DNA of 42,351 nt from Escherichia phage vB_EcoM-ep3, in sequence record NC_025430.1; one strand, given 5' to 3'. This document shows positions 1 through 42,351 of the stretch, in pieces; positions within the stretch are counted from its first letter, which is position 1, and every line of letters starts with the position of its first letter. The notes under the pieces are model-generated. The model was not told the origin of the DNA. It did not search any database and saw only the letters and a program-made list of their open reading frames with translations. The position numbers and the translations under genes are program-made.

Positions 1-27
1 AAAAAAAAACCCCGCCATAACGGCGGG
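1..27 (-). terminator. intrinsic terminator downstream of ssb
   Basis: Hairpin CCCGCC-ATAAC-GGCGGG (11-27) preceded on + strand by A9 (1-9), i.e. followed by a U-run on the - strand transcript; lies just 3' of the SSB stop. A near-identical hairpin recurs at 42328-42344. Confidence 0.7.
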
Positions 28-51
28 TTGATTACTTAGAATGATTTGGAA

Positions 52-537
52 TTAAAACGGGATGTCATCGTCAAAATCCATCGGCGGTTCGTTCGCTGGT
101 GGTTTCTGTTGGCCGCTGTGGGTTGGCTGCTGCGGCTTACCCCATCCGCCTTGCTGGCCGCCCTGGCTTTGCCCACCGGCCTGGTTATCGTTGGCCGCTG
201 ACAGCATCAACAACCGGCCATTCATGCCCACCACGATTTCAGTTGTGTAGCGATCAACGCCAGCCTGGTCCTGCCACTTGCGCGTTTGCAGCGCGCCTTC
301 AATGAACACCTTGCTGCCTTTGCGCAGGTACTGGCTGGCGATTTCTGCCAGCTTTCCGAAGATGACCACGCGGTGCCATTCCGTTTTTTCTTTCTTCTCC
401 CCTGTCTGCTTATCCTTCCAGGTTTCAGACGTGGCAATTGATAACTGCGCCACGCCGTTGCCGTTCGGCAGCGTGCGGAATTCTGGATCGTTGCCTAAGT
501 TGCCAATGATTTCTACTTTGTTCAGTGAACCGGCCAT
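52..537 (-). CDS. ssb: single-stranded DNA-binding protein
   Basis: 161-aa ORF; SSB-like N-terminal region, Gly/Gln-rich linker ([15 protein letters not shown]) and acidic C-terminal tip DFDDDIPF typical of bacterial and phage SSB. Confidence 0.93.
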
Positions 538-13507: not shown

Positions 13508-13942
13508 ATGGAATTACCGCGCACTGTGCAGGAAATAGCTGACGTTATTGGCCGTGAACGTGCGCTATATCTTATCGGACAACTACCAAAATTGTGGGTG
13601 CCATCGCAGCAGTACCACAAAGTAATTTTGTATGTGCCAAAGCGGATTCGGCCCAATGACCCCCTGGTGAAAATTCTTGGATGGAGTGACGCCAGCAAGA
13701 TGGTGCAGCACTTCGGTGGTGAAATGCTTCACCCGGCTAATTGCGAATACATTTACCGCCGTTTCATCCACAGCAGCATCAAGCGGATGCACAGCGAAGG
13801 AATGGACGCAAAAGCCATTGCGGAACTGCTGGACGTTTCAGAACGCACCGTGAAGCGGCACTGCACTGACAAACCCCACAAAGACACATCACCTGCAAAT
13901 GACAACACTCCCGAACGACTACTAACCGCTATGGGGCAATGA
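13508..13942 (+). CDS. Mor/C-family-like transcriptional activator
   Basis: 144 aa; GGGGG RBS; central FGGE...P segment and C-terminal HTH (MDAKAIAELLDVSERTVKRH) resemble the Mu Mor/C late-activator layout; sits immediately upstream of the lysis and structural genes. Confidence 0.55.
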   Translation: MELPRTVQEIADVIGRERALYLIGQLPKLWVPSQQYHKVILYVPKRIRPNDPLVKILGWSDASKMVQHFGGEMLHPANCEYIYRRFIHSSIKRMHSEGMDAKAIAELLDVSERTVKRHCTDKPHKDTSPANDNTPERLLTAMGQ

Positions 13943-15551: not shown

Positions 15552-15715
15552 AAATATTTTCACGCACGACGCAAATAATGCTTGACATCAGCCGAAGTCG
15601 AAAAAGTCAAGGTACTTCCGAGGGGGGTACAGCCTGCGGGGGCATTGGTCCCGCCTAATTCGCGTTGTGCGTGGATAATCAAAATCGATTTTAGCATTAG
15701 ATAAGGCGGCATTAA
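15552..15715. other. candidate cos/packaging-site region
   Basis: ORF-free 164 bp between the spanin stop and the Nu1-like small terminase start; contains G-rich element GAGGGGGGTACAGCCTGCGGGGGCATTGGTCCCGCC (15621-15656). Position matches lambda cos (inference only). Confidence 0.3.
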
Positions 15716-16240
15716 TTGGCTAAAACAATAAAAGGCCGAACAGTAAACCGCAGCGGCCTGGCGGAAGTTTTCGGGGTAGCACCGCCAACAGTTGACCAGT
15801 GGCGAAAAGACGGCGCGCCCTACGTAACACTTGGCGGGCGTGGTAAAGAATGGGAGTACGACACCGCGCAGGTGGCGGCCTGGTTGCGTGAACGCGATGT
15901 GAAGGCGGCCACCGGCGACGTGATGGCGGATGAAACGGAATTGAAGCGCCGCAAGCTGGCAGCCGAAACCGAAAAAGCAGAACTGGAACTGGCCAAAGCC
16001 AAAGGCGAAGTGGCACCACTGGACCAGGTTGAACGCGCCGTTGCCCGCGCCTTCGCGGAAGTGCGCGCCGGGATGCGCAACCTGCCACAGCGCACCGTTT
16101 CAATGCTTATCGGTGAAACCGATGAACGCCGGTTCAAATCGGTGATGATGGGCGAAATTGACGAAGTGCTGAAATCACTGGTGACCGCTTCCCTGCTGGA
16201 TGGCTATGACGAAGGGGGCGACGGTGACAGCGAAGAATAA
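15716..16240 (+). CDS. terminase small subunit (lambda Nu1-like)
   Basis: About 174 aa; N-terminal HTH (LAEVFGVAPPTVDQWRKDGAPY) and overall layout resemble lambda Nu1; TTG start at 15716 after AAGGCGG (start uncertain); 3' end overlaps the large-subunit gene. Confidence 0.78.
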   Translation: MAKTIKGRTVNRSGLAEVFGVAPPTVDQWRKDGAPYVTLGGRGKEWEYDTAQVAAWLRERDVKAATGDVMADETELKRRKLAAETEKAELELAKAKGEVAPLDQVERAVARAFAEVRAGMRNLPQRTVSMLIGETDERRFKSVMMGEIDEVLKSLVTASLLDGYDEGGDGDSEE

Positions 16241-18248
16241 CCCGTTTGCCAACATTGAAGGCATTGACCAGGCTATCCGGCGCGCACAACAACAATTGTT
16301 GCCGCCGCCAGACATGAAGCCGTCAGAGTGGGCGCAGGCTAATATCCGCATTCCGTCTGGCAACGCCGTGCCAGGACCGCTGCGCCTGGATAACGCGCCA
16401 TACCAGCGCGAACCAATGGACATGCTGGTTGACCCTGATTGCTACCGTGTAACGCTGATGTGGGGCGCGCAGGTGGGCAAAACCATGCTGGCACTGTGCG
16501 TGCAGGCGTACAGCGTAGCCGCTGAACCGCGCAGCCAGATGATGATGCAGCCAAGCCAGGATGACTTGCGCACCTGGCTGGAAACGAAATTCAACCCTCT
16601 GGCGGAAGAATGCGCGCCGGTAAACAACGCCATTGCCAAACCGCGTGGCCGCGACGGGGTGAACAACCAGAAAATGAAATCATACCCTGGCGGGTTCTTG
16701 ATGTTCGCCTGGTCCGGTTCGCCAAAGACCATGCGCGGGCGTTCAGCGCCGCTGATTGTATGTGACGAGGTAGACGGATATGAACGAACCAGCGAAGGGC
16801 ACCCGGTTGGCCTGCTGTGGCAGCGTTCTGCCACCTTCGGTGACCAGCGGTTTTTGCTGGAAATCAGCACCCCTACCCTTAAAGGTGAATCGTACATCGA
16901 AAAAGCGTATGAAATGGGCGACCAGCGGCACTTCTTTGTTTGCTGCCCGCACTGTGACGATCACGTTACGCTTGAATGGGAAAACGTCAAATGGGATGGC
17001 CAGCGGGAAACTGACGCGGAAACGCTGGCGGCCATCGAAGAACAGAAGCCGGAAACAGCGCACCTGTATTGCCCATCGTGCGGCGCGCAGTGGAATGACG
17101 GCGAACGGATAGCGGCTATCCGTCAGGCCGAAGAAAAGGGCGCAGGCTGGAAGGCGTCCAGGCCGTTTGAAGGGCACGCAAGCTACCACCTGAACGAACT
17201 ATACAGCACATTCCGCAAAGTACCGGCCATCGTGCGTGACTACCTGGACAAGCTGAAAACGGACGACCTGCAAACCTTCACCAACGTCAGCCTGGCGCGC
17301 ACCTGGGAAGAAGAAGGCGACAAGGTTGACCCGGATTCACTGATGGCACGCCGCGAGGAATACGCCGCGCAGGTGCCTGCTGGTGGGCTGTATATCACCG
17401 CAGGCATAGACATGCAGGTTGACCGCCTGGAATGTGAGGTGGTGGCCTGGGGCGTTGGTGAAGAATCCTGGTCATTGGGTTACCACGTCCTGTGGGGCGA
17501 CCCTCTGACGCCAGATCCGTGGGATGCGCTTGATGACCTGCTGGCGGAAACCTACCAGCACGAAACCGGCGCAGTGCTGCCGATCATGGCCGCCTGCCTG
17601 GATACCGGCGGCACCAGCGGTTACACGCAGGCCGCCTATGACTACGCCAGAGGGCGCACAGGCCGCCGCCTGTTTGCCATCAAAGGAGTGGGCGGTTGGG
17701 GTCGTCCTATCGTGGAGAAGCCGCAGCGCAAGCAATCCGGGAAGGATGCCCGCAAAGTGGATTTATTCCTGGTGGGCACCGATGAAGCCAAGCTGATAAC
17801 TGCACGCCGTTTAAACAAGACGGCACCGGGGCCAGGTTATTGCCACTTCCCTGCTGACCGCGATGAAGAATGGTTTAAGCAAATCACCGCTGAAAAGCTG
17901 ACCATGCGTTACGTGAAGGGCCAGCCAATCCGCGAGTGGAAGAAACCCGACCGGGCGCGCAACGAAGCACTGGACTGCCGCAACTATGCGCTGGCCGCGC
18001 TTAAAATCATGCAGCCGTCATTCCGCCGCCTGGCTGAAAAGTTTGGCGTAGCGAACGACAACGCGCCACCGGAACGCCGCAAGCGGCTTCCGAACGTCAA
18101 ACCCATCGTGAAACCGGTGGAAGTGCCGCAACCGGCCAATGACAAACCCCAAGAAGAAGAAAAACAGCAAGTCACAGAGACTAAGCCCATTAAACGTTCC
18201 GCCAGGGCATCCAAACGCCGTGGCGGTGGATGGGTTAGCCGCTGGTGA
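16200..18248 (+). CDS. terminase large subunit (lambda gpA-like)
   Basis: 682 aa; Walker A-like MWGAQVGKT, CPHCDDH zinc-binding-like segment; overlaps the small-subunit gene as in lambda Nu1/A. Confidence 0.9.
   Translation: MAMTKGATVTAKNNPFANIEGIDQAIRRAQQQLLPPPDMKPSEWAQANIRIPSGNAVPGPLRLDNAPYQREPMDMLVDPDCYRVTLMWGAQVGKTMLALCVQAYSVAAEPRSQMMMQPSQDDLRTWLETKFNPLAEECAPVNNAIAKPRGRDGVNNQKMKSYPGGFLMFAWSGSPKTMRGRSAPLIVCDEVDGYERTSEGHPVGLLWQRSATFGDQRFLLEISTPTLKGESYIEKAYEMGDQRHFFVCCPHCDDHVTLEWENVKWDGQRETDAETLAAIEEQKPETAHLYCPSCGAQWNDGERIAAIRQAEEKGAGWKASRPFEGHASYHLNELYSTFRKVPAIVRDYLDKLKTDDLQTFTNVSLARTWEEEGDKVDPDSLMARREEYAAQVPAGGLYITAGIDMQVDRLECEVVAWGVGEESWSLGYHVLWGDPLTPDPWDALDDLLAETYQHETGAVLPIMAACLDTGGTSGYTQAAYDYARGRTGRRLFAIKGVGGWGRPIVEKPQRKQSGKDARKVDLFLVGTDEAKLITARRLNKTAPGPGYCHFPADRDEEWFKQITAEKLTMRYVKGQPIREWKKPDRARNEALDCRNYALAALKIMQPSFRRLAEKFGVANDNAPPERRKRLPNVKPIVKPVEVPQPANDKPQEEEKQQVTETKPIKRSARASKRRGGGWVSRW
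18141..18157 (+). repeat. 17-bp motif GACAAACCCCAAGAAGA, copy 1
   Basis: Exact copy inside the terminase 3' end, in frame encoding DKPQEE; 114 bp upstream of the GTG start at 18255. Confidence 0.9.
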
Positions 18249-20350: not shown

Positions 20351-22376
20351 CATCATTGGGGCCGAATTTACCCGCAAATCAGACAGCAAAACGCTGCCTG
20401 ATTTCAACAAAGGCGGGCTGGTGCGCACTATGGAAGTGCGCAAGTTTGACACCGAAAAACGCACCGTAGAACTGGCGTTTTCCTCCGAAATCGAGGTTGA
20501 ACGCTGGTACGGTATCGAAATTCTGGACCATTCGCCGGAAAGCGTGCGCCTGGACCGTCTGCGTGACGGTGGGGCGCTGCTGGTTGACCACGATTGGACT
20601 GACCAGGTGGGCGTTGTTGAATCCGTCAGCATTGACGCTGACCGCCGGGGGCGGGCTGTGGTGCGCTTTGGCCGAAGTGCACGCGCTGACGAGATTTTCC
20701 AGGACATCGTTGACGGCATTCGCAAGCATGTTTCCGTTGGCTACCGCGTGTTAGCGGCCAAGCTACAGGAAACGCGTGACGAGTGGCAGGATGTCTACCG
20801 CATCACTGAATGGGAACCGTTCGAAATTTCAATTGTGAGCGTTCCCGCTGACACCAGCGTTGGCATTGGGCGTGCGTTTGACAAACCCCAAGAAGAACAA
20901 CGCGGCATCAAATCCGATACTGCGGGCACCGTAGAGGTTCCAGCACCAAAAAAATCATTTGAGGATTCACGAATGTTAGAAAAAATTCTGCGCGACGCTG
21001 CCGGTAACCTGGTGCGCGCGATGGTAGACGAGAAAGGCAACATCACGCAGGTTCTGGAAATGCTGGAACGTGCTGGCGATGATGCGCGCAACGCTGAACA
21101 GCGTGGCCGTGAAGCGGAAAAGGCGCGCGTGCGTTCCATCACTGAAATGGGCGAGAAGTACAACGCACGTGACCTGGCTTTGAAAGCTATTGGCGAAGGC
21201 ACCACCGCCGAAGATTTCCAGCGTTCCTTGCTGGACCACCTGAACAAGCCGAAAGACCCGGCACAACCGGCTGATGACACCCGTTCCGGCAGCAAGCCGC
21301 TGTCAGAAATGCCGTCCAGCGTGATTGGTATGTCTGACAAAGACATCCGCCGCTATAGCATTTTCAACGTGGTTCGCGCGCTGGCTAACCCGAACGATGC
21401 AGCCGCACAGCGTGCCGCAGCGTTTGAAATCGAATGCAGCCACGCAGCGCAACAGCAGTATGGCCGCAGTGCAAAAGGCATCCTGATCCCTGACGATGTT
21501 CTGCGCGCATTCAACGCTGGTGGCGCACCGAACACCCCGACAGGTGCACAGACCGGTTCCAACCTGGTTGGCACTGACTTTATGGCCAGTTCGTTCATCG
21601 ACCTGCTGCGCCCGCGTACCACCATCATGCGCCTGGCGCGTACTATGGGCGGCCTGGTTGGCAACGTTGAAATTCCGAAACAGACTGGCGGCGCTACTGC
21701 CTACTGGATTGGTGAAGGTGATGACGCAACCGAAACCACGCCGACCATCGGCCAGCTTAGTTTGTCACCGAAAACCGTTGCGGCTTACACCGACATTACC
21801 CGCCGCCTGCTGATGCAATCCACCCCGGATGCGGAAGCTATCGTGCGCGGTGACCTGGTGGCAGCTATCGCGCAGGCGATTGATTACGCTGGCTACTACG
21901 GCACCGGCACCAGCAACCAGCCGCTGGGTCTGGCGAACTACACCGGCATTAATGCGGTAGACTTCGCAGCAGCCAACCCGACTTATGCGGAACTGGTGCA
22001 GATGGAAACCGAAATCGCGGCTGACAACGCTGACGTGAACAACATGGCATATGTGCTGAACGCGCGTGGCCGTGGTGCAGCGAAAACCACGCCGAAGTTT
22101 GCCAGTGGTTCTTCCGTGGCTGACGCTGGCGTGATTTGGGAACCGGGCAACACCCTGAACGGTTACCGCGCCGAAGTTACCAACCAGGTTCAGGATGGTG
22201 ACGTGTTCTTTGGCAACTTCGCTGACTTGGTTGTTGGTATGTGGGGCGGCCTGGACATGACGGTTGACCCGTATAGCCTGAGCAAATCCGGTGGCCTGCG
22301 CATCGTGGTATTCCAGGACGTGGATTTTGCGGTGCGCCGCGTTGAATCCTTCTGCCTGGGCCGCAACGCAGCATAA
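20328..22376 (+). CDS. prohead protease-scaffold-major capsid fusion protein (HK97-fold)
   Basis: 682 aa; N-terminal about 200 aa prohead-protease-like, central charged coiled-coil, C-terminal about 350 aa HK97-like major capsid region; internal in-frame ATG at 20973 with GAGGA RBS. Confidence 0.85.
   Translation: MQKNLLNSIIGAEFTRKSDSKTLPDFNKGGLVRTMEVRKFDTEKRTVELAFSSEIEVERWYGIEILDHSPESVRLDRLRDGGALLVDHDWTDQVGVVESVSIDADRRGRAVVRFGRSARADEIFQDIVDGIRKHVSVGYRVLAAKLQETRDEWQDVYRITEWEPFEISIVSVPADTSVGIGRAFDKPQEEQRGIKSDTAGTVEVPAPKKSFEDSRMLEKILRDAAGNLVRAMVDEKGNITQVLEMLERAGDDARNAEQRGREAEKARVRSITEMGEKYNARDLALKAIGEGTTAEDFQRSLLDHLNKPKDPAQPADDTRSGSKPLSEMPSSVIGMSDKDIRRYSIFNVVRALANPNDAAAQRAAAFEIECSHAAQQQYGRSAKGILIPDDVLRAFNAGGAPNTPTGAQTGSNLVGTDFMASSFIDLLRPRTTIMRLARTMGGLVGNVEIPKQTGGATAYWIGEGDDATETTPTIGQLSLSPKTVAAYTDITRRLLMQSTPDAEAIVRGDLVAAIAQAIDYAGYYGTGTSNQPLGLANYTGINAVDFAAANPTYAELVQMETEIAADNADVNNMAYVLNARGRGAAKTTPKFASGSSVADAGVIWEPGNTLNGYRAEVTNQVQDGDVFFGNFADLVVGMWGGLDMTVDPYSLSKSGGLRIVVFQDVDFAVRRVESFCLGRNAA
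20880..20896 (+). repeat. 17-bp motif GACAAACCCCAAGAAGA, copy 2
   Basis: Exact copy inside the capsid fusion ORF, same reading frame (DKPQEE); 93 bp upstream of the internal start at 20973. Confidence 0.9.
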
Positions 22377-25178: not shown

Positions 25179-25181
25179 CCT

Positions 25182-25198
25182 GACAAACCCCAAGAAGA
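25182..25198 (+). repeat. 17-bp motif GACAAACCCCAAGAAGA, copy 3
   Basis: Exact copy in the intergenic gap 3 nt after the gpV stop and in gpV's frame; followed by hairpin ATGCGGGC-ATCATT-GCCCGCAT (25211-25232) that holds the gpW start; 49 bp upstream of gpW. Confidence 0.9.
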
Positions 25199-25231
25199 TA
25201 AACCATCACCCATGCGGGCATCATTGCCCGC

Positions 25232-31401: not shown

Positions 31402-31404
31402 ACG

Positions 31405-31421
31405 GACAAACCCCAAGAAGA
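31405..31421 (+). repeat. 17-bp motif GACAAACCCCAAGAAGA, copy 4
   Basis: Exact copy 4 nt after the terminator T-run, intergenic; 89 bp upstream of the tail sheath start; followed by inverted repeat ACTGTG..CACAGT (31456-31469). Confidence 0.9.
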
Positions 31422-31493
31422 AGCCACGCACGGTTCCTGCGACCATCACACTGCGAATTTTCACTGTGTGCACAGTTAATAGGAAACCGAATA

Positions 31494-40973: not shown

Positions 40974-40998
40974 AGCCCGCCTCTTCGGCGGGCTTTTT
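40974..40998 (+). terminator. intrinsic terminator
   Basis: AGCCCGCC-TCTTC-GGCGGGCT hairpin followed by TTTTT. Confidence 0.8.
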
Positions 40999-41003
40999 GT
41001 TGG

Positions 41004-41030
41004 TGGCGACCCAGGAAGGAATCGAACCTG
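41004..41030 (-). other. tRNA 3'-end-like fragment (T-loop, acceptor 3' strand, CCA); candidate att core
   Basis: - strand reads CAGGTTCGATTCC TTC CTGGGTC G CCA: canonical T-loop, 7-nt acceptor strand, discriminator and CCA, but no matching 5' acceptor strand (GACCCAG) or D/anticodon arms upstream. Confidence 0.5.
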
Positions 41031-41571
41031 TAACATACAGCTTATACTACCTGCCGCAGACGCGCGAGGCGATGAATAAATGGGAAATATTGTTGCGAAA
41101 TGCACTTGCGTGATATAGGATTAAATTGTCAGTTGTAGAGATTCACGCTGTCGAGAGATACACGATGACCGCCGTGAAAGGACGGCACACAACAGGTAAG
41201 AGCATTGAACCCGTAGACCTCGCGGATTTGGTGAAAGGTGCCGCGCATTGCTCTTTCCGTTGTGGTGAATGCGCAGGCTGATGCGCGACCAATGTATAAA
41301 CAGCGCTCATGGCAAGCAGTAACCAATCTGCGCCTCAAGACAGCGTCACTGGTAGTGCGGGCGCTCTAACCAGTAAGCCGGAGTTCAGCACCGGCCACCA
41401 CAACACGCGCCGTGATGCGCTTTTGCGAACACTTCCAACCACCAGGGTGTTACCTCGCAACGTGAAAGCGCATCGCAGTGCGACATTCGCACAGACTGGA
41501 ACTTACCAGACTAGTGATTCCAATAAGGCAGGTGATCTGTATCTCGCATCACAGCGTCACGTGACACAAAA

Positions 41572-41592
41572 CCCCGCTTAGGCGGGGTTTTT
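41572..41592. terminator. bidirectional intrinsic terminator
   Basis: CCCCGC-TTAG-GCGGGG hairpin flanked by ACAAAA upstream and TTTTTCTTT downstream; lies just 3' of the - strand SprT-like gene and at the end of the + strand ORF-poor region. Confidence 0.75.
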
Positions 41593-41598
41593 CTTTGG

Positions 41599-42270
41599 TC
41601 ATTCGTCATCGCCTTCCGGAGTCATCGCGCCATGTTCCGGGCAGTGAGGCGGCCCGACCTCCAACCATTTTTGCGTTACCCGAACCGTGTAGCCGCATTC
41701 CTGGCATTCGCATTTTTTCAGCCTGGTGGTTTGCTTAGGCTTCGCCGTGGACGCACCGCCGACCGGTGCCACTTCGATTTCCTCCCCTTCATCATCGTCA
41801 CCGCCTTCATCCAGGCCGATGCGCAGGCGTGGCACTTTTATGGATATGCCACGGTCAAACGTCAGCTTGGCGTGCGGCATGGGGCCAAGTTCGTCCAGGA
41901 ACGGTTTGACGTACTCTTTGAATTTCTCGCCAGGCGTGGTGGCGGTCATCGGTCCATTCAGGCCAACAGCCTTGCACACAGTGGCAAACGCGCCCTTGTG
42001 GCCACAGTCAAAACCAACGGTGGCGTGCGTCAGTTCGTGCCACAGGTGGTTTGCGACCAGGTACGGTTCCACCTGGTCTGGCATGATGAATATTTCAAAG
42101 GTGTTGTCTGCACTGCACTTGCTGTGCCAGCACTGTGCCGCCGTACTGGACCGCGCGCCGCTGCTGCAAAAGCCAACTGACACCCGGAATTTTGGCATTT
42201 CATAGCCGAATTCTTTAAAACGCGGCGCAAACTTCGCCGCCAAAGCATTTAACCAACCTTCACGGTCCAT
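41599..42270 (-). CDS. SprT-like zinc metalloprotease with C-terminal zinc ribbon
   Basis: 223 aa; HExxH motif (WHELTHA) after a basic N-terminal region, acidic linker, C-terminal CECQECG...HCPEHG zinc ribbon; GAGG RBS and a perfect TATAAT (rc of 42306-42311) upstream on the - strand. Confidence 0.55.
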   Translation of the reverse strand: MDREGWLNALAAKFAPRFKEFGYEMPKFRVSVGFCSSGARSSTAAQCWHSKCSADNTFEIFIMPDQVEPYLVANHLWHELTHATVGFDCGHKGAFATVCKAVGLNGPMTATTPGEKFKEYVKPFLDELGPMPHAKLTFDRGISIKVPRLRIGLDEGGDDDEGEEIEVAPVGGASTAKPKQTTRLKKCECQECGYTVRVTQKWLEVGPPHCPEHGAMTPEGDDE

Positions 42271-42322
42271 ATATATTTCCTCTCAATGCGTTTAAACGTG
42301 TTTAGATTATACAAAGGCAAAG

Positions 42323-42344
42323 AAAAACCCGCCATAACGGCGGG
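42323..42344 (-). terminator. intrinsic terminator for a - strand transcript entering from beyond the window
   Basis: CCCGCC-ATAAC-GGCGGG hairpin (42328-42344) preceded on + by AAAAA; 22-nt near-identical to the terminator at 1-27. Confidence 0.6.
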
Positions 42345-42351
42345 GTGGTTA

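Follow-up and report, generated by a model that had tools for sequence, protein, structure and literature searches.

Sequence-specific errors of Illumina sequencing were described by Nakamura et al. (2011; Nucleic Acids Res 39:e90; PMC3141275), who found them to be triggered by GGC and by the inverted repeats of terminators. Such errors are limited to one reading direction; at terminators the error sites of opposite directions overlap, and the consequences are loss of coverage, branching and gaps in assembly (PMC3141275). Only some of the GGC or inverted-repeat sites set off errors (PMC3141275).

The locus considered here is formed by the two ends of the window, i.e. of the whole stretch of DNA analyzed (42,351 nt; Escherichia phage vB_EcoM-ep3, record NC_025430.1). 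The window is 91-96% identical to ECO1230-10, ECOO78, PT1, Alux-21 and HeidiAbel_Bas97, and judging by its sequence it is the complete genome of a Jilinvirus-like (Iiscvirinae) myophage. We consider it very probable that the hairpins present at its two ends are a single terminator seen twice: the circular map was broken at the hairpin in the course of assembly and the tips of the resulting contig were miscalled.

The terminal hairpin

The sequence-only reading of the window had reported a near-identical terminator hairpin at both ends, with both copies oriented as minus-strand terminators and with diverging flanks; all of this was borne out. An exact 17-nt core, CCCGCCATAACGGCGGG, is present at both ends (Table 1). 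The exact 22-mer AAAAACCCGCCATAACGGCGGG occurs once, at 42323-42344, and the left copy (6-27, AAAACCCCGCC...) differs from it by one mismatch; the chance expectation for a repeat of the 22-mer is nil (matches in 0 of 100 shuffles). Ungapped similarity between 2-34 and 42319-42351 reaches the last base of the window, with 29 of 33 positions identical (88%). An exact overlap left by an assembler at the ends of a closed circular contig is ruled out by these mismatches (29/33, with 17 nt exact). The terminator scan scored both copies as terminator-like on the minus strand, with stem CCCGCCGTTATGGCGGG and with minus-strand tails GTTTTTTTTT at the left end and TTTTTCTTTG at the right end. The flanks on the right side of the two copies read TTGATTA versus GTGGTTA; those on the left side read AAAAAAAAAC versus CAAAGAAAAA.

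The stem, CCCGCC/GGCGGG, consists of six G+C base pairs and encloses a 5-nt loop; it is invariant across relatives, while the loop is variable (ATAAC, ATAAA, ACAGC, ATTGC). The hairpin begins at position 27, 24-25 nt past the SSB stop codon on the coding strand, and in the right copy as well as in all relatives the stem is followed on the minus strand immediately by the T-rich tract TTTTTCTTTG. Predicted fold energy was -11.5 kcal/mol for the hairpin alone and -15.3 kcal/mol in the merged minus-strand context (z = -3.15). We characterized the hairpin as, in all probability, one ordinary intrinsic terminator located between the SSB stop and the SprT-like start and belonging to a leftward early operon; the SSB gene would be the last gene of this operon, whose transcript the hairpin is predicted to terminate. 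A protein identical to the SSB of the window is encoded by the Logan contig SRR7530098_76901, a close relative to which this protein led; the window itself was absent from IMG/VR, and searches with its SprT-like and portal proteins gave no record of them. At the other end, the homologue of the 41599..42270 product is labelled 'SprT-like domain-containing protein' in KA2-1; the Pfam search of the window gave no match for this product. No Rfam family matched anywhere in the window.

Table 1. Features of the window bearing on the interpretation of its ends
Feature	Coordinates	Strand	Description
Left contig tip	1..10		AAAAAAAAAC; redundant, apparently an error-laden, degraded copy of the true left flank 42318-42327, CAAAGAAAAA
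Left hairpin core copy	11..27	-	CCCGCCATAACGGCGGG; very probably the same physical terminator as 42328-42344; maps to the same bases in relatives
True right flank	28..51	-	TTGATTACTTAGAATGATTTGGAA; spacer from SSB stop codon to hairpin, collinear with all relatives
SSB gene	52..537	-	Pfam SSB, E = 9e-39; C-terminal ...DFDDDIPF; stop codon 52-54
Small (Nu1-type) and large (GpA-type) terminase genes	15716..18248	+	Pfam Phage_Nu1, GpA_ATPase, GpA_nuclease
Lysogeny-module remnant	41000..41118		tRNA 3' fragment abutting last integrase codons; read from sequence
Gene annotated SprT-like in relatives	41599..42270	-	223 aa; start 58 nt downstream of the hairpin on the minus strand
Right hairpin core copy	42328..42344	-	with its left flank (T-rich on the minus strand, TTTTTCTTTG) a predicted intact intrinsic terminator
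Right contig tip	42345..42351		GTGGTTA; redundant, apparently an error-laden, degraded copy of 28-34

Nine sequences cross the junction at which the ends of the window would meet: HeidiAbel_Bas97, PT1, KA2-1, Arya, the circular ECO1230-10 record, the metagenome contig OBJT01002426, Logan contig SRR7530098_76901 (98.7% identical to the window over 2 kb) and the IMG/VR contigs L047 and L049. All nine carry one hairpin between the SprT-like start and the SSB stop; two hairpins in series were found at the junction in none of them. In each of these relatives the two window ends are adjacent and map to one and the same stretch of 29-35 nt. The earlier suggestion of a circular molecule linearised between tandem terminators was therefore right with respect to the circle, the ends being adjacent in relatives, and wrong with respect to the two terminators, as 9 of 9 relatives have a single hairpin.

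Tandem terminators are known from phage and bacterial operons. One could suppose that a 34-bp tandem duplication produced two real terminators which have since diverged, and that the circle was opened between them; the ends of the window, if joined, would read ...GGCGGGGTGGTTAAAAAAAAAACCCCGCC..., i.e. two consecutive terminator-like hairpins, and a coverage gap in the interval separating two hairpins is another way in which an assembly could break. We regard such a history as improbable, however: the arrangement is seen in 0 of 9 relatives, including one that is 98.7% identical beside the site; in comparison with the joined ends HeidiAbel, KA2-1, Arya and PT1 are shorter by 32-35 nt; and a divergence of 12% between the copies is out of scale with a lineage so close to single-copy relatives. 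Also, the differences between the copies are confined to the outermost 7-10 nt and are all of the lagging type described below.

Contig tips in two unrelated phages

We saw that each copy in the window agrees with the relatives in the inward direction; disagreement is limited to the outermost 7 nt in the right copy and to the outermost 10 nt in the left. At the position of the left tip all relatives read AAAGAAAAA or a close variant; at 28-34 most relatives read CTGATTA, the window TTGATTA. Base 28, the first one after the hairpin, is T in the window and in Arya and C in the other relatives including the closest one; this T could be either a real polymorphism or a further miscall beside the hairpin.

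With the 'true' flank for the window tips drawn from the other copy and the relatives, the left tip is identical to it at 7 of 10 positions and the right tip at 5 of 7. For a small pooled sample of 30 bases, taken from four tips of two contigs (the window and IMGVR_UViG_3300045988_060849, see below), 20 bases (67%) match the true flank, with P ~2e-6 in comparison with unrelated sequence. All 10 mismatches in these tips equal the template base one or two positions upstream in the outward reading direction, seven of them at lag 1; under random substitution such a pattern has P ~2.7e-4. In the window itself each tip mismatch (3 left, 2 right) equals the preceding template base, if read outward from GGCGGG. 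The hexamer GGCGGG is present on both strands, ending each arm of the stem, and errors begin at the next base: the first base past GGCGGG was miscalled as G at four of four tips, which explains the extra C that precedes the stem in the left copy and the extra G that follows it in the right one. A sequence-specific error is expected to have GGC and/or an inverted repeat no more than about 10 nt upstream of the error start (PMC3141275), and this was observed in both directions. The outer bases of the tips thus appear to be derived not from foreign DNA but from the flank of the phage itself, in degraded form. A fold-back chimera (hairpin turn-around) was ruled out by sequence inspection, as the reverse complement of the inner flanks does not match the tips.

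Judging from the error pattern alone, the most likely cause is the Illumina sequence-specific lagging-phase error; both the sequencing platform and the exact behaviour of the assembler are what we infer from this pattern. Plus-strand reads would be correct through the hairpin and then degrade, producing the right tip; minus-strand reads would do likewise from the opposite side, producing the left tip. No clean k-mers would then bridge both flanks and the circle would stay open, with each tip coming to a dead end a few miscalled bases past the stem, through quality trimming or dead-ends of the graph. The hairpin would hence appear at both ends, and the 7-10 bases outside of it would be miscalled copies of the flank.

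The artefact itself, one terminator and a broken circle, may be real without lagging-phase errors of Illumina being its source. Polymerase stalling or low coverage on another platform could be responsible, as could an imperfect manual circularisation or re-orientation onto the ECO1230-10 start, or an overlap-layout assembler which left the ends untrimmed and poorly polished. In favor of such a cause, it is at the edge of this hairpin that the older ECO1230-10 record begins, which would be compatible with re-orientation or with a platform-independent problem posed by the hairpin. Still, a set of mismatches that is of the lagging type in 10 cases out of 10 is specific to phased sequencing-by-synthesis; moreover, manual re-orientation would yield no miscalled duplicate tips, nor would it explain the like pattern in a raw IMG/VR contig. 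We consider a technical cause of this other kind unlikely, though not negligibly so.

Scanning IMG/VR for the 17-mer, we found it 7 nt from the start and 6 nt from the end of one more contig, IMGVR_UViG_3300045988_060849 (48,109 bp; L014, 1-30, and L015, 12700-12728), a Webervirus-like Klebsiella siphophage unrelated to the phage of the window. There were no junction-spanning relatives of this contig, because the tail-fibre end is variable, and the gene order of the circular SCNJ1-C was used instead. In SCNJ1-C the genes for SSB (96% aa identity), for the convergent tail fibre and for the homologue of an 826-aa protein (97% aa identity) are contiguous; therefore, the ends of IMGVR_UViG_3300045988_060849 should be adjacent on a circular map. 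At its tips we observed GGTCAC where TCTAAC was expected and GGTGTTT where TCTGTTT was expected. To explain this contig by a tandem duplication, one would have to assume that the duplication, the G-biased differences and the break point all recurred in an unrelated phage; the same diverged duplication with the same break point in two unrelated genomes is very unlikely. One could also speculate that the 17-nt hairpin is a DNA-level hotspot in two unrelated enterobacterial phages, one a Jilinvirus and one a Webervirus, where replication slippage promoted by the hairpin makes tandem copies that diverge, or a site-specific nick or recombination takes place, the contig ends representing real molecular heterogeneity and not miscalls; we find this highly improbable.

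The hairpin is no universal breaker of assemblies, since five other IMG/VR contigs and two metagenome contigs, as well as HeidiAbel, PT1 and the Logan contig, have the identical 17-mer in their interior. In L047, which comes from the same metagenome as the broken Webervirus-like contig, the same stem with a different loop was assembled through, a fact that may also be counted in favor of a technical cause other than lagging-phase error. As to stability, other terminators in the window are, by RNA folding, as stable as the end hairpin or stabler, which rules out hairpin stability as the cause of the lone break in the assembly. The presence of GGC on both strands separates the end hairpin from three other terminators of the window but not from the terminator at 40974-40994, where the stability is no lower and GGC is likewise found on both strands, but the assembly is unbroken.

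A further observation concerns the record of Alux-21 (L008, 4200-4230), which ends at ...GTGACACCTTTGGT. Compared with window 41555-41600, it appears to be without the 25-nt terminator hairpin AAAACCCCGCTTAGGCGGGGTTTTT (window 41568-41591), ending just there; this end may be another record boundary or a deletion at a GGC hairpin.

Packaging and the lysogeny module

A direct repeat at both ends of a phage-sized sequence can also be read as the physical direct terminal repeat of virion DNA, as the sequence-only reading had proposed. This repeat, though, is just 33 nt long and imperfect, and the GpA/Nu1 terminase together with the lambda-family portal encoded in the window (both assigned by Pfam) indicate packaging of the lambda type, with cos ends. 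Arya, KA2-1 and ECOO78 have linear records whose first bases correspond to window ~15,635-15,651, a short distance upstream of the Nu1 gene. From the terminase type and these record starts the physical ends are expected near 15,640 rather than at the ends of the window; the proposal was dropped, its probability being practically negligible.

The same records draw attention to a probable cos site at window ~15,630-15,651, upstream of the small terminase gene (15716-16240); judging by how far the record starts are offset from one another, a cohesive end within CAGCCTGCGGGGGCATTGGTCC would measure roughly 13-17 nt.

We also observed a 19-nt motif, TGACAAACCCCAAGAAGAA, which occurs five times on the plus strand (13867-13885, 18140-18158, 20879-20897, 25181-25199 and 31404-31422), always on the late-gene strand, in comparison with 0.01 copies expected by chance. 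ECO1230-10 also has five copies, all on the late-gene strand. Four of the copies in the window are situated 50-115 nt upstream of late blocks (lysis, head-tail/portal, baseplate, sheath); two are inside coding sequence (the 3' end of TerL and a protease-capsid fusion) and encode DKPQEE. A homologue of a late activator is found at 13508-13942. The motif is a candidate late-promoter or activator site.

The possibility that the two copies are att-like repeats was raised by the sequence-only reading as well. In this interpretation the copies would be attL and attR of a prophage whose insertion site was a host terminator with the longer stem CCCCGCC...GGCGGGG, crossover would have taken place in the 17-nt core, and the empty host site would read AAAAAAAAACCCCGCCATAACGGCGGGGTGGTTA. 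The identical core, the diverging outer flanks and the ability of these flanks to rebuild a perfect 7-bp stem are what one would expect from such a site; besides, prophages of this group are on record, and some members of Jilinvirus have an integrase gene (PMC11990801). The same source describes the lysogeny modules of Jilinvirus as 'deteriorated or absent', in agreement with the remnant present in the window.

This remnant includes a 3' fragment of a tRNA on the minus strand (~41000-41030) and the last ~24 codons of int (41046-41118); the latter stretch aligns at 92% with the 3' end of an intact integrase gene located at the same place in the Logan relative. No tRNA was detected in the window. 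Both tRNA-Arg and the integrase are intact in HeidiAbel, and the integrase is intact in KA2-1. We conclude that the integrase was deleted and that the phage is a presumably lysogeny-defective derivative. The intact relatives have the integrase/tRNA-Arg module ~1-2.5 kb from the hairpin, with the ParB-like gene on one side and the SprT-like gene on the other. Against the att interpretation, then, stand the deletion of this module, its position away from the hairpin in intact relatives, and the fact that the element in the window encodes no site-specific recombinase.

Searches for the host site point the same way. None of 5,426 complete E. coli genomes matched the hypothetical attB 34-mer over its full length, and the best partial matches (E >= 3) were at chance level. 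The 19-mer stem version of attB had 23 matches in 100,044 species genomes, all being generic terminators of unrelated taxa; among these genomes none of the matches was in Escherichia, Klebsiella, Salmonella or Enterobacter, and none had the required flanks. The tips resemble the phage flank (20/30), with no host DNA outside the core. The Webervirus-like replicate IMGVR_UViG_3300045988_060849 would not be expected to integrate, since the group to which it is likened is known as virulent. With the integrase deleted, no attB in E. coli or in the 100,044 species genomes and the outer flanks being phage-like, the att proposal did not survive; we find it extremely improbable.

An integrated E. coli prophage was likewise ruled out: the left 1.5 kb of the window had no match in the 5,426 complete E. 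coli genomes, and the right end was matched only through an unrelated 138-bp element. About 190 complete E. coli genomes contain unannotated DNA that is 96-97% identical to this element (41263-41400), and so do many unrelated phages (IME10, Stx2c phages, Gally). In one E. coli genome examined the match is in the immunity region of a lambdoid prophage, between the genes for a cI-like repressor and the N antiterminator. Rfam gave no family for the element, whose sequence overlaps with the beginning of a 90-aa ORF (41309-41581); a mobile module and a small RNA are two candidate identities.

Record curation and comparison with known systems

The biology of the phage is unchanged by this finding, the value of which is in curation. 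Trimming of the 34 redundant bases (1-27 and 42345-42351, five of them probable miscalls) should leave one terminator on a circle of about 42,317 bp. Imperfect terminal repeats of this kind are at risk of being misread as att sites, terminal repeats or tandem terminators, and they are missed by checks of completeness that search for exact repeats; IMGVR_UViG_3300045988_060849, apparently a complete circular map, would escape such checks. One small GGC hairpin seems to have broken the assemblies of two unrelated phages, which suggests that strong terminators are recurrent break points for short reads.

Among known systems, the hairpin is predicted to be an intrinsic (Rho-independent) terminator, which it matches in its stem, U-tract and position at the end of a gene, with nothing unusual about it. 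With the attL/attR sites of temperate phages the locus shares an identical short core, divergent arms and a position at the ends of a phage-length sequence; it differs in that no integrase, attB or host DNA is present and in that the outer arms are apparently degraded phage flanks. As in the 'DTR' terminal overlap, which is used as a signal of completeness for viral genomes, both ends of the string represent the same locus of a circular map; however, the overlaps left by assemblers are exact and of k-mer length, while the overlap in the window comprises 33 nt with 4 mismatches and, being imperfect, would be missed by exact-repeat checks.

In comparison with the sequence-specific errors of Illumina, the process here is deduced from contig tips alone, and the same hairpin was assembled through in other data sets. 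The likeness is in the GC-rich inverted repeat with GGC on both strands, in the errors situated immediately past the motif in the reading direction, in the miscalls that equal the preceding one or two template bases, and in the gap or branching that follows in de novo assembly.
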